Origin: a bacterium
GTDB lineage: Bacteria; Patescibacteriota; Microgenomatia; Woykebacterales; RBG-16-39-9b
Assembly (NCBI GenBank): GCA_030704665.1
Contig: JAUYID010000009.1
Coordinates: forward strand, 586,460-650,459
Direction of reading: 5' to 3'
DNA: 64,000 nucleotides
Both the position numbers and the translations under genes were made by a program. The notes below the pieces were generated by a model. The model worked only from the letters and a program-made list of their open reading frames with translations, had not been told where the DNA came from and did no database searches. How positions within the stretch are numbered: position 1 is the stretch's first letter; every line of letters begins with the position of its first letter. Shown in pieces: positions 4,466 through 63,355 of the stretch.

Positions 4466-5035
4466 ATCAAAAATTGTTTTCACCCGGCGCAGCTCTAGTT
4501 TGCTTTCTTCCTCAGCCTGCCAATTTATTACATATTTCTCCCAATCTTTGACTATTTCACTCCTAGCCTTTTCAGGAAAGAAAAAAGCTATTTCAGAACT
4601 TCCGACAGGAGCATAGTTTTCTAGCGAAACAACAATAAAAGGAATTTCCTTCAAAACTTTTTTTCCTTTTAAATAATAGCTCAGAAGGCTGTGGTGACCA
4701 TCAAAAAGAATTAGTTTTGAATTTGGCCCGAGGACAAATTTTATGTTCGGTAAACCCCGATTTCCATAAATATGGGTATTTTTTTCAATTTCCTCTGACA
4801 ATTTTTCAATTTGCTTCAAATCACGTAAACCGGATTTATTGTGGAGAGGAACTGCCTCCCCAAGAGAAAAATCTGCAAAAAAGCTTTTCTTTTTCGTTAA
4901 ATCCTTTTTCCAGTTGCCTTTTATTCTTTCAATTATTTTGTAGGGAGAATCCTTTTTTGTTGTGAAATTTGCTACGAAAACACCCATCAATGTTGGAATC
5001 GAGATAGTGACAAAACTTTTCATGGCTTTAAACAA
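4418..5035 (-). CDS. hypothetical protein
   Basis: 205-aa ORF. Convergent with the methyltransferase and overlaps its 3' end by 48 nt. No recognisable motif. Confidence 0.4.
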   Translation of the reverse strand: MFKAMKSFVTISIPTLMGVFVANFTTKKDSPYKIIERIKGNWKKDLTKKKSFFADFSLGEAVPLHNKSGLRDLKQIEKLSEEIEKNTHIYGNRGLPNIKFVLGPNSKLILFDGHHSLLSYYLKGKKVLKEIPFIVVSLENYAPVGSSEIAFFFPEKARSEIVKDWEKYVINWQAEEESKLELRRVKTIFDLGRQLGKRNESSIEE

Positions 5036-60263: not shown

Positions 60264-60454
60264 TAAACGTCATTCTCAGCTTAACTGAGAATCTTCTCTA
60301 AAGATCCTCGTTTTCACGAGGATGACAAGTTGTAATTCTAGGTCTGGGAGACTTAACTCACAAAAATGCCCCTTCTGGTTTTCGGGGAAAACTTTTGGGG
60401 CCCACCATTATCTTAACAAACAGCAAGCAAGCGGTGTCAAGATGTTAAAGCGCT

Positions 60455-61219
60455 TCAATCTTCAACTACCAAGCTCTGAAGTAGTTCTTTCGCGGCTTTA
60501 TACTCTAATGAATTCACAAACTCTTGTTTTGAAATTGTTTCTTTAAAGCTCATCTCAAAGCTAAAGTTAACCGGACCAGTAGGATCTTTCGTTTTCAACG
60601 GTATTACATTATCCAACACACACGACCATTCTTTTGAGCTAGCTAAATAACTAGTTTTGACTTGGTTTTCGGAAGAACTTCCAGTAAACCGCAGGTAAAG
60701 GTTTTGATTGTTCACCTTGATTTTTTCGCTGCTTACAATAAGGTTAGCGGGTGGTTTGGTATCCTCTGGACAAGCACCACCAATTCCTCCTGGAATTTCT
60801 GAAATTTCAATCAGAAATCCATTTGACCCAGTAATAGTATAATAATGCCCAGAATTTTCGTTTTTCGAGTCGTCTTCTTTTAACAACCAAGTTTCTGGAG
60901 CCTTAAAGGTTAACATATGTGTTTTTCCTTTTTTAGTTGAGTGATCAAAAAGACTGTCGTAGAGCTTTATTATTCTTTCAACTGTCTTGGTAGAAGGAAG
61001 TATCTTCTCAGCTGAAGAACTAGCTTGCTTAGCGCTATTGGAAGCGGTGTTGATCGGAGTGTTGGTTGTATTGGGATTTTTGGATTGCTGGTCGAGGTAG
61101 TACCAAGCCCCAGCTACAACCAAAGCAAGGATAATAGCTACGGCTACAACTGCCAGAGTAACTCGTTTCAAACTAAAACTGCTCGTTGCTTTTAAAGGGG
61201 ATTGAATCAGCGTTGCCAT
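60455..61219 (-). CDS. hypothetical membrane-anchored protein
   Basis: 254 aa. N-terminal TM helix, Ser/Thr/Asn-rich linker, and a globular C-terminal domain. Confidence 0.45.
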   Translation of the reverse strand: MATLIQSPLKATSSFSLKRVTLAVVAVAIILALVVAGAWYYLDQQSKNPNTTNTPINTASNSAKQASSSAEKILPSTKTVERIIKLYDSLFDHSTKKGKTHMLTFKAPETWLLKEDDSKNENSGHYYTITGSNGFLIEISEIPGGIGGACPEDTKPPANLIVSSEKIKVNNQNLYLRFTGSSSENQVKTSYLASSKEWSCVLDNVIPLKTKDPTGPVNFSFEMSFKETISKQEFVNSLEYKAAKELLQSLVVED

Positions 61220-61243
61220 AAAAATTTTCAGATTCAGCTAAAA

Positions 61244-61489
61244 CTAATGAGCTGAACTGGTAGCTGGCTGAGCACTTTTTGAAGCTGAGTTTGTCGCTTG
61301 TTTGATGGAAGCACCTTTGTCTTCTTGGTTGACCACGTTCCAGGTGTACCAGAAAAGTGCTCCACCGATCAAAGCAGCGATGACCGCAATGACAGCGGTC
61401 GTGATCAGTGTCTTTTTGAGATCAAGCTTTTTTGAAGAAGCCGTTTGTGGCGGAGAAGTTGGCGACGGAGTGGTAATTTCTTCAGGCAT
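61244..61489 (-). CDS. hypothetical small membrane-anchored protein
   Basis: 81 aa. The N-terminal region (TM helix plus S/T-rich segment ending SSAH) resembles the N-terminus of the neighbouring 60455-61219 product, so it may be a paralogous fragment. Confidence 0.35.
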   Translation of the reverse strand: MPEEITTPSPTSPPQTASSKKLDLKKTLITTAVIAVIAALIGGALFWYTWNVVNQEDKGASIKQATNSASKSAQPATSSAH

Positions 61490-61527
61490 TGGCTTTATTA
61501 TCTAAAATATAGAGGTTTGTGTCAAGC

Positions 61528-61737
61528 TTACTGAGTTTCGAGAGCTTGAATTCTCTCTTCGTGTCCTTGCAGTCTTTCATCGTAGCGATTGACAGCATTA
61601 TTCAAAGTTCTTTCAATTCGATTCAAAATCTCTTCCATTCTATCTGTATCGTCCTTAAGTGCAACAACTGGAAGAATATTTTCCTCTACAACTTCTCCTA
61701 CCAACTTAACTAATTCTTTTTTGTCTTGTGTGTTCAT
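61528..61737 (-). CDS. hypothetical small coiled-coil protein
   Basis: 69-aa ORF, charged and helical. Possibly spurious. Confidence 0.3.
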   Translation of the reverse strand: MNTQDKKELVKLVGEVVEENILPVVALKDDTDRMEEILNRIERTLNNAVNRYDERLQGHEERIQALETQ

Positions 61738-62004
61738 TTTGACTTAAAGCTAGTATCGTAAATACTCTTACTTTCACCAATATATTTCCTTTTCCAATTA
61801 CTCATTACCCTTTTTATTTCGTCCTCAAGCATCTTCTTCAATTTTTCACGTTCTGGAATACTCATGGGAACTTATTTAACTAAAAAAGGTACTTTCTGTC
61901 AATTAAGAAATTTTGCTAGAGGATTACTTTCTAAAATTGTCATGCTGAACTAGGTTCAGCATCTAGATCCTGAACTGAATTCAGGACGACCTTTCTTACC
62001 TTTG

Positions 62005-62052
62005 TCTCATAAATGCCGGGATATATACTTTGCTGTGCAAAGACTGCATTCC
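62005..62052. repeat. structured repeat unit copy 1 (ftsZ-downstream intergenic region)
   Basis: TCTCATAAATGCCGGGATATATAC-[CTTTGC tgt GCAAAG]-ACTGCATTCC. Conserved flanks around an inner hairpin. Confidence 0.6.
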
Positions 62053-62115
62053 CTCTCTACCTAAAAAATTAAGTTGTTTTAATTGGGAATAGTGGGCAAA
62101 AAAAGTTTACCTCTG

Positions 62116-62166
62116 CCTCATGAAAGCCGGAATGTATACTTTTTCTGGCGAAAAAGACTGCATTCC
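62116..62166. repeat. structured repeat unit copy 2
   Basis: CCTCATGAAAGCCGGAATGTATAC-[CTTTTTC tggc GAAAAAG]-ACTGCATTCC. The outer GGAATG/CATTCC pair is possible; the inner hairpin has a different sequence but the same shape. Confidence 0.6.
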
Positions 62167-62226
62167 TTTTGAGCGTTAACGTCCAGTTAACTTGTCAGCT
62201 AATATAAAGGGGGTAGTTTAGCGTTG

Positions 62227-62270
62227 TCTCATAAATGCCGGAATGTAAACCTCGCTTCGCGACGACTGCA
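62227..62270. repeat. structured repeat unit copy 3 (more diverged)
   Basis: TCTCATAAATGCCGGAATGTAAAC-[CTCGC ttc GCGAC]-GACTGCATAC. Ends 9 nt from the ftsZ stop codon. Confidence 0.5.
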
Positions 62271-62278
62271 TACTGCTT

Positions 62279-63355
62279 TTATCGCTGACGCATAAAAGCA
62301 GGTATGTCGAAGGCGTCTTCCTCTTCTGTCTCCCCACTAGAAGACTCGGGTACATCGGGAAGGGCCTCAACTGCCTCACGAGAAACTGCGGCGCGAGCTT
62401 TGTCTTCAGAAAAACCAGTCGCGATGACGGTAATTTTTACCTGATCGACGAGATTTTCATCAATGGCTGCTCCAAAAATGATATTGGCATCGGCATCCGC
62501 AGCAGCGGAAATGATCTTGGCCGCCTCATCGACTTCAAACATGGAGATGTCAGCTCCACCGGTGACATTGAAAAGCACTCCTTTGGCTCCTTCGATCGAA
62601 ACTTCAAGCAAAGGAGAGGCGATCGCTGCCCGTGCTGCTGAAGCAGCGCGGCCCTCACCGGTACCGTAGCCAATTCCCATCAGAGCACTTCCAGCGTTGG
62701 TCATGATGCTGCGAACATCAGCAAAGTCGACGTTGATCAGACCAGGCATGACGATGATGTCGGAAATACCTTGAACTCCCTGACCAAGAACTGAATCGGC
62801 AACTTTGAAAGCTTCAATCAAACTCATTTTTTTATCAACCACATCGAGCAACCTTTGGTTGGGAATGACGATCATAGTATCAACTTTGTCTTTGAGACCA
62901 TCAACCCCTTCTTCGGCTACTTCCCAACGGTGCGCTCCTTCGAAAGTAAAGGGTTTAGTTACGACTGCAACTGTCAGGGCCCCACTTTTGCGAGCGATAT
63001 CAGCAACGATTGGGGCAGCACCAGTACCAGTACCACCACCCATTCCGGCAGTGACAAAGACCATATCGGCATCACTGACAACTTCGGAAAGCTTTTCGGC
63101 TGACTCTTCAGCAGCTTTTTTCCCAATATCCGGATCTCCTCCCGAACCAAGACCGCGAGTCAATTGCTCTCCAATTTGGACTTTGGTCGGAGCTTGGCAA
63201 GTTAGCAGTGCCTGAGCATCAGTATTAACACCAATAAAATCGACACCTTGAATTTGTTGAAGAGTGATCATAGAGTTGAGGGCGTTGGTTCCAGCTCCGC
63301 CAACACCAATGACCTTAATTTTTGCAAAACGGTTTACTTCCGGTTTTATGAGCAT
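62279..63355 (-). CDS. ftsZ: cell division protein FtsZ
   Basis: 358 aa. Tubulin signature [11 protein letters not shown]-terminal [19 protein letters not shown]-terminal conserved peptide DIPAFMRQR. Confidence 0.95.

Follow-up and report, generated by a model that had tools for sequence, protein, structure and literature searches.

The C-terminal peptide of FtsZ is a hub for anchoring and regulation of the Z ring. MciZ, SulA, lambda Kil and P1 Icd act on FtsZ directly: they bind it and block its polymerisation. A classical arrangement for linking the expression of neighboring genes is known from phage MS2 and many operons, where a hairpin occludes a downstream start codon until the upstream cistron is translated. 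Free C-terminal fragments of FtsZ (residues 354-383) are inhibitory to E. coli in vivo, with FtsA subdomain 2B as their predicted binding site, and ZipA binds such fragments at about 20-35 uM (PMC11831152). P1 Icd is a small division-directed protein of 73 amino acids (aa) (PMC11897509). Key signals of translational bypassing in gene 60 of phage T4 are matched take-off and landing codons, a stop past the take-off site and a take-off stem-loop (PMC7026636). A natural mini-gene for the FtsZ tail was not found described in the literature searched. The subject of this report is a set of three short repeats located directly past ftsZ in a stretch of 64,000 nucleotides (nt) from contig JAUYID010000009.1 (positions 586,460 to 650,459), referred to here as the window. 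On balance, the repeats are probably ftsZ-coupled mini-genes for peptides that mimic the FtsZ tail and would compete with it for FtsA.

FtsZ homologs assign the window to Candidatus Woykebacteria, in the candidate phyla radiation (CPR, or Patescibacteria). The ftsZ gene (62279-63355, minus strand) encodes 358 aa with Pfam matches to Tubulin (7.7e-49) and FtsZ_C (8.3e-34), and ftsA adjoins it immediately upstream. Translation of its last codons together with the TAA stop (62279-62305, minus) gives IPAFMRQR, the same tail that is found in the Woykebacteria FtsZ set. Three repeat units lie at 61996-62049, 62107-62160 and 62218-62271 (plus-strand positions), with start-to-start distances of exactly 111 and 111 nt. 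An initial annotation of this DNA had placed three units of ~50 nt, spaced by ~110 nt, in a 540-nt region said to be free of open reading frames (ORFs), and had interpreted them as a candidate structured non-coding RNA or cluster of repeat elements. The units are real and the spacing was correct, although the left boundaries were ~9 nt off. The region is not free of ORFs, however, since it holds the 17-18-codon ATG ORFs formed by the units plus a 43-codon ORF, all on the minus strand.

Read on the strand of ftsZ, each of the three units is an ATG-started, TAA-ended ORF of 17-18 codons. Mini-ORF 3 (62218-62271, minus; 17 residues) is nearest to ftsZ, with its ATG 7 nt past the ftsZ stop. It is followed by spacer A (62164-62217, minus; 54 nt), which contains a GTTAAC-TGGAC-GTTAAC palindrome, and then by mini-ORF 2 (62107-62163, minus; 18 residues), spacer B (62050-62106, minus; 57 nt) and mini-ORF 1 (61996-62049, minus; 17 residues). 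The ATG of mini-ORF 2 is its sole possible start because an in-frame stop lies four codons upstream. All three peptides would share one layout: MQS, 4-5 variable residues, VY, and then IPAFMRQR at the C-terminus. In every unit, this last element is identical to the C-terminal eight residues of the FtsZ encoded upstream, and it contains the I/V-P-x-F/Y-L/M/I-R/K core that the FtsZ C-terminal peptide carries near its extreme C-terminus.

Comparisons with relatives were made on a set comprising the 80 best-matching species-representative ftsZ loci, the nearest relatives, and metagenome contigs with YIPAFMRQR followed by a stop; loci of this set are cited below by number (L001 and so on). The tail of the window units is identical to that of most Woykebacteria FtsZ proteins tabulated. 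The residue before Ile-Pro sets the two apart, being Tyr in the window units versus D, E or N in all 84 FtsZ tails tabulated; an acidic residue (D or E) directly before I/V-P is thus absent from the window units.

The sequence that had been described as conserved flanks around a variable hairpin is accounted for by this layout. The long flank reads TTACCTYTGYCTCATRAARGCCGGRATRTAWAC in plus-strand orientation, and its reverse complement, GTW TAY ATH CCG GCN TTY ATG AGR CAR MGN TAA, encodes VYIPAFMRQR and the stop; the short flank, GACTGCATWC, is the start of the mini-ORF (ATG CAG TC); and the "variable hairpin" corresponds to codons 3-8. A search for the pattern ATGCAGTC-N8-20-GTNTAYATHCC returned 3 matches in the 64-kb window, these units alone, where shuffled sequences predict 0; within the window, a suggested check for dispersed copies found none beyond the three adjacent units. 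Tandem Repeats Finder reported no repeat at the array because the spacers are too diverged. With flanks that are codons matching the FtsZ tail, variation that is synonymous only, no Rfam family and no dispersal of the units in the window, the interpretation as a structured non-coding RNA or repeat-element cluster is not upheld.

The manner in which the units differ from one another is the principal evidence that they are coding. Across their 14 conserved codons (stop included), 10/10 variable sites are synonymous, with one AGG/CGC switch between Arg codons. Random single-base changes in the same codons would be synonymous in just 19% of cases, which yields P~6e-8 for an all-synonymous pattern. 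Three of the ten sites fall in the MQS and VY codons, which lack a counterpart in FtsZ and therefore could not have been inherited from an ftsZ allele. Spacers A and B, on the other hand, are 44% identical versus 36 +/- 6% for shuffled sequence and have no detectable homology. Because the differences among units are all synonymous while the spacers cannot be aligned, it appears that selection kept the peptide and not the DNA. The codon pattern thus indicates protein-level selection on the three units, which carry what is expected of small ORFs under purifying selection: a start, a stop and substitutions concentrated at synonymous positions. Gene callers miss ORFs of 17 codons, but the sequence by itself is enough to recognise them if it holds several diverged copies.

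Synonymous differences could also be acquired in another way. It is conceivable, albeit unlikely, that the units are untranslated scars, i.e., copies of the tail core left behind by an insertion or recombination hotspot at the 3' end of ftsZ, with synonymous differences brought in from other alleles and hairpins arising as by-products of recombination or template switching. In L101/L102 (3093-4935), for instance, a 1.8-kb insert carrying a MUG113/T5orf172-like PF13455 gene and a HEPN_Cthe2314 gene separates ftsZ from a displaced ftsZ 3' end, and this displaced fragment (about 4880-4935) differs only synonymously from the resident tail in the shared core. Gene content between ftsZ and pyrG varies in almost every Woykebacteria locus, the array itself is a ~350-nt insertion relative to L082, bounded by the ftsZ stop and a promoter block that both loci have, and several relatives' units are without start codons. 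Recombination is thus frequent at the 3' end of ftsZ, and part of the unit pattern can be mimicked by scars. Yet the units resemble FtsZ from the Ile codon onwards and no further upstream, where the sequence is MQS, a hairpin and VY instead of the acidic linker that the L101 scar has kept. Ser precedes Ile-Pro in some relatives' units, and no tabulated FtsZ has Tyr or Ser at this position. The MQS and VY codons, likewise, vary only synonymously, and start codons are kept in 3/3 units and are structurally gated. Finally, the L097 and L098 units have a common disrupted layout, yet their tail codons have diverged synonymously only.

Hairpins are prominent throughout the region. The strongest local one, overlooked in the initial annotation, encloses the ftsZ stop (62268-62308, minus) and folds to -17.4 kcal/mol (z -4.11), with 0/200 shuffles as stable. 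It has perfect 10-bp arms at 62273-62282 and 62292-62301, in which the Asp-Ile-Pro-Ala-Phe codons of ftsZ pair with the sequence just past the stop, including the AUG of mini-ORF 3. The start of unit 3 is accordingly occluded by the end of the upstream ORF while being close to its stop, and the 7-nt distance is compatible with re-initiation. As judged from the predicted pairing, the stop hairpin and the unit 3 AUG have textbook translational-coupling geometry.

This hairpin has analogs in relatives. Stop hairpins with a folding free energy (dG) <= -12 are found in 7/8 unit-bearing loci versus 7/83 unit-less loci; dG ranges from -9.8 to -17.8 in the eight unit-bearing loci, compared with a mean of -6.5 +/- 3.1 in the 83 unit-less ones. 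Folds of single loci gave z values of -2.4 to -4.7 in five further unit-bearing loci. The fold is weak in L105 (z +0.2), and z is about 0 in the unit-less L081, L082 and L087. The 3' arm tracks the synonymous codon choice of each ftsZ, as in CCU/AGG, CCA/UGG and CCG/CGG. When the hairpins are placed in a shared register, 77% of cells are paired versus 32-48% in slid controls, 4 pairs have changed on both sides, and the covariation score is reached by 4/500 shuffles.

Two of the units carry a two-tier hairpin of their own. In unit 2 (62129-62166, minus; -14.9 kcal/mol, z -4.1), the outer stem is GGAAUG/CAUUCC and the inner stem CUUUUUC/GAAAAAG, while in unit 1 (62018-62053, minus; -10.9 kcal/mol, z -2.0), the corresponding stems are GGGA.AU/AU.UCCC and CUUUGC/GCAAAG. 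The outer stem in both cases pairs a purine stretch resembling a Shine-Dalgarno sequence, and the start codon next to it, with the Tyr-Ile-Pro codons of the same unit. The stem of unit 3 itself is limited to 4 bp and folds to -6.1 kcal/mol (z +1.1), which is not above shuffles. The earlier suggestion that inner hairpins differ in sequence while preserving pairing consequently holds for units 1 and 2 but not for the third, whose stem is UCGC/GCGA, not CTCGC/GCGAC, and is no better than shuffles. A fixed 48-nt fold upstream of Ile-Pro gave a mean z of ~-1.1 over all units versus 0.04 +/- 1.12 for 91 ftsZ tails, a modest shift; a claim of a significant hairpin in every unit is therefore unsupported.

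Directly past mini-ORF 1 are two adjacent perfect hairpins (61939-61990, minus) with arms UCCUGAA/UUCAGGA and AUGCUGAAC/GUUCAGCAU. These are the two small hairpins that had been noted at 61942-61986; jointly, they fold to -23.6 kcal/mol (z -4.4). The pair lacks a U-tract; it is a candidate for the end of the transcript or for an element that stabilises the ftsZ mRNA at its 3' end. No terminator-like site (a G+C-rich stem-loop plus U-tract) was found on either strand of 61400-62500, and no T-run follows any hairpin. An intrinsic terminator was ruled out for want of a U-tract.

RNA secondary structure is a real, selected feature of the region. The proposal of selection on structure is borne out in that two of the three unit hairpins beat shuffles and the ftsZ-stop hairpin covaries, but not in its appeal to conserved flanks, which are codons. 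As a reading of the hairpins, putative translation-control structures, within mini-ORFs and next to them, are preferable to an independent RNA gene. A purely cis-acting RNA, in which a structured ftsZ 3' untranslated region would serve as a stabiliser, processing site, attenuator or protein-binding site and would resemble coding sequence only incidentally, is very unlikely. Such an RNA would fit the hairpins that exceed shuffles (those of units 1 and 2, of the ftsZ stop and of the stretch past unit 1), the covariation in the stop hairpin, and a block of leader, hairpin and right flank that is nearly invariant between L097 and L098 (2/~73 nt). It leaves unexplained why the flanks spell the FtsZ tail, begin at an ATG, end at a stop and vary only synonymously, and the hairpin of unit 3 itself is not above chance. 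A cmscan of 61400-62600 against Rfam at E <= 10, a check proposed in the initial annotation, moreover identified no Rfam family, with only five chance-level matches at 10-18 bits versus gathering scores of 40-91.

Co-transcription, translation, coupling and competition for FtsA are what we infer from this arrangement of mini-ORFs and hairpins. The mini-genes would ride the ftsZ transcript, with no promoter or terminator consensus in between and the double hairpin past the last of them. Hairpins in the mRNA would bury their start codons. A ribosome finishing ftsZ would open the stop hairpin and restart 7 nt downstream at unit 3, i.e., by translational coupling, while units 2 and 1, closed by pairing with their own Tyr-Ile-Pro codons, would be opened conditionally by structure-gated translation. 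Once released, the peptides may occupy the tail-binding pocket of FtsA or of another tail partner, compete there with FtsZ, lower its effective anchoring and, in this manner, tune anchoring of the Z ring. If this is true, tail copies gated by the translation of ftsZ would provide a simple stoichiometric titration of FtsA or another tail partner.

Units of the window type are not a general feature of related bacteria. None was found in the best-matching 80 species-representative ftsZ loci, among which a looser motif scan finds a tail unit in L010. The nearest relatives, with FtsZ proteins that are 87-93% identical, have no units, and the distance from ftsZ to the following gene is only 4-66 nt in them. 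No orthologous array is present among these loci to align for an R-scape-style analysis. A metagenome-wide scan for YIPAFMRQR followed by a stop returned three contigs; two of these visibly adjoin ftsZ, and the third, L096 (JGI), is identical in the overlap to the ftsZ-adjacent locus L105 (ENA). The same search in viral contigs gave 0 matches.

Tail units do occur in more distant, independent lineages, where they vary considerably in form. In L105, a tail-ending ORF of 32 codons has an ATG that overlaps the ftsZ stop (ATGA) and has been called as a gene, with a protein cluster of n=1. An ORF of the same length in L104 starts from a TTG overlapping the ftsZ stop. Tail-ending units are located directly past ftsZ in L097, L098 and L103, and units ending in SSIPAF[ML]R... 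are found in L098 and L100. A unit of the Levyibacteriota locus L010 (5150-5206) reads PPAFLRQRN-stop (DESQACFWPPAFLRQRN followed by the stop), is in frame behind the TAA stop of ftsZ, and has no start codon. All eight codons that it shares with ftsZ are synonymously recoded (CGT to AGG twice, TTA to CTC). The following gene begins within this unit, in a different frame. The variant of the tail found in a unit is that of its cognate FtsZ: FMRQR in general, FLR in L100, and FLRQRN in L010. The junctions in relatives are ATGA, TTGA or TAAATG. As a side note on nomenclature, several records of metagenome-assembled genomes with Patescibacteria-type ftsA-ftsZ (e.g., L001, L002, L004 and L006) bear the name "Candidatus Nanoarchaeia archaeon" or "uncultured Gammaproteobacteria bacterium" in their titles and are probably mislabelled.

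Four of the relatives have a split form of tail unit: L097 (2857-2961, minus), L098 (4802-4904), L103 (2555-2650) and L104 (1205-1300). An ATG right past the preceding stop opens M[Q/L]VLKTREY (or MNTESKMREY), which ends with UAC plus a stop. The order is then UAC-stop, a covarying stem-loop, GGAG-CGAUCU-UAC and the IPAFMRQR codons, with the GGAG 6 nt before the second UAC. The gap measures 38 or 46 nt, and the frame relation across it differs between close relatives. The outer stem of the stem-loop includes the UAC in L103 and L104, and L105 has UAU at both positions. Between L097 and L098, 7/9 third positions of the tail codons differ, all synonymously, and the stop is TAA in one versus TGA in the other; 2/~73 nt have changed in the leader, hairpin and right flank, versus a third-position divergence of 39% in ftsZ. 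The synonymous-only change in the tail therefore suggests that protein-level selection persists in a layout that needs non-linear decoding.

By their layout, the split units are candidates for translational bypass, or for re-initiation at an AUU 9 nt past the GGAG. Joining at the Tyr codons would produce a peptide of 17-18 residues, the size of the window's peptides. The window units themselves are continuous ORFs with no internal stop, and hence are not bypass elements and need no bypass. A broader scheme, which is tentative and rather improbable as a whole, would unite the two forms: some Woykebacteria and at least one member of the Levyibacteriota would produce FtsZ-tail decoys from the ftsZ mRNA by termination-coupled re-initiation, as a layer of division control not described before, the split lineages (L097, L098, L103 and L104) would hop from the UAC-stop to the GGAG-preceded UAC over the 38-46-nt gap, and the window array would be the uninterrupted, amplified form. 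Hopping in the split units, if true, would place programmed translational bypassing in a cellular, non-phage setting. Beyond phage T4 and yeast mitochondria, these units are a candidate for non-linear decoding that is open to experiment.

Decoding events could also be invoked for the window units, as alternative C-termini of FtsZ reached from ftsZ by +1 frameshifting, readthrough or hopping, which would yield isoforms of FtsZ whose tail is replaced or followed by a second one. This is highly doubtful. The three window units are in the +1 frame of ftsZ, and that frame is open for 53 codons (62218-62379, minus) across the ftsZ stop into unit 3, as it is in L098; the units of L100 and L010 lack a start codon and continue the ftsZ frame after one stop. 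The open +1 frame, however, is probably a by-product of the conserved tail codons, with TAA read as xTA Axx. At CGA-TAA-A there is neither a slippery sequence nor another known frameshift motif, and units 2 and 1 cannot be reached linearly, as in-frame stops precede them. The frame relation also varies among relatives (0, +1, +2), and with the 5' arm of the hairpin upstream of the stop, a terminating ribosome would melt the stem and not be stimulated by it.

Mobile palindromic repeats, of the kind known as repetitive extragenic palindromes (REPs) and miniature inverted-repeat transposable elements (MITEs) or of an integron-attC-like kind, that lie past ftsZ by chance are extremely improbable: although each unit is a ~38-nt imperfect palindrome with conserved outer arms and a variable center, the three adjacent copies are alone in 64 kb, the metagenome units are on three contigs of which two are beside ftsZ and the third matches an ftsZ-adjacent locus, viral contigs gave 0 matches, the four ORFs immediately downstream have no recombinase or transposase domain, and the variation is structured by codons. 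Integron attC, Xer or dif-type sites were rejected on direct reading, there being no RYYYAAC/GTTRRRY ends, no integrase in the four ORFs, and codon-structured variation. An assembly artefact, in which ftsZ 3' variants of different strains were stitched in tandem, was rejected as well; the units are without the ftsZ linker, the spacers are unique, and a related architecture recurs in independent assemblies, such as those of L096 and L105.

Several observations weigh against mini-genes for FtsZ-tail mimics. The array is absent from the closest relatives and is therefore dispensable or recent. There is no canonical start in the tail frame of L098 unit A, L100, L010, L097 or L103, and simple translation of mini-ORFs therefore cannot be the whole story for the family. 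In the window units, the purine-rich GGA abuts the ATG (spacing 0-2 nt), as opposed to the AGGAGG located 3-8 nt upstream of Shine-Dalgarno-led genes in the window; with this spacing and with AUGs in stable stems, independent initiation at units 1 and 2 would therefore not be obviously efficient. A peptide of 17 residues would probably bind weakly, by analogy with the FtsZ fragments described above. Lastly, L101/L102, with their displaced ftsZ 3' ends, show that a tail copy under no selection of its own can still differ only synonymously, having inherited its differences from another ftsZ allele.

A promoter-like block (61873-61902, minus) that is also present in L082 marks the downstream limit of the lineage-specific array. 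It consists of TTGACA, 17-18 nt and TAAATA, and ends 7 nt before the ATG of the next operon. Its geometry from -10 box to ATG recurs at many genes in the window. Most long ORFs of the window, in fact, lack a Shine-Dalgarno sequence and show a -10 box resembling TAAAAT 6-8 nt upstream of the ATG, with a minority having AGGAGG at 3-8 nt, which suggests that leaderless mRNAs may be widespread in this genome. In the next operon (61528-61865, minus), a 43-aa ORF (61734-61865) overlaps a 69-aa ORF (61528-61737) by ATGA. A homolog of the latter, 83 aa in length, lies directly past ftsZ in L082, which is without the 43-aa ORF. In Pfam searches, none of the four ORFs that directly follow the array matched a family significantly or contained a recombinase, transposase or integrase domain; matches of 61528-61865 to XhlA and coiled-coil families were weak and below threshold. 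The interval between ftsZ and pyrG, the gene for CTP (cytidine triphosphate) synthase, can be described as a hypervariable islet between core genes. It is seen as such in L081, L082, L087, L090, L099, L100, L101, L106 and the window (60264-62278), with contents that include a PMT glycosyltransferase, a PsbP_2-like protein, ParE-like toxin genes, a PIN gene and small membrane proteins.

The locus can be compared with five kinds of known system. Like the FtsZ C-terminal peptide (also abbreviated CTP or CTC) that docks on FtsA, ZipA and SepF, the mini-ORFs keep the I-P-x-F-[LM]-R core. Unlike in FtsZ, the motif would be borne on a free 17-18-mer and not on a tubulin-like polymer, and Tyr replaces the residue before Ile. 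The predicted peptides would also be small and division-directed in the manner of MciZ, SulA, lambda Kil and P1 Icd. They have no sequence relationship with these proteins, however, and as mimics of the FtsZ tail they would target the partners of FtsZ.

With respect to translation, the bypassing of T4 gene 60 and of yeast mitochondria is resembled by the split units of L097, L098, L103 and L104, which carry matched codons, a take-off stop and a stem-loop. In contrast to gene 60, their leader of 9-10 codons is too short for the long nascent-chain signal, and there is no sequence homology. The window itself can be set beside hairpin-type coupling: tail codons of ftsZ pair with the AUG of unit 3, the hairpin encloses the stop, and translation would restart 7 nt further on. 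It departs from classical coupling in that the occluding arm encodes the very motif that is re-encoded downstream, and units 2 and 1 would be gated by their own codons.

In its logic, the array would match dominant-negative fragments and microProteins, in which only the interaction motif of a larger protein is kept and competes with the parent. If true, the array would represent a naturally evolved bacterial version of such a microProtein or fragment, in a CPR lineage with a minimal divisome and an essentially unstudied mode of division. Unlike the engineered fragments, the copies here would be encoded in the genome, tandemly triplicated, located directly behind the parent gene and, as their codons suggest, under purifying selection.

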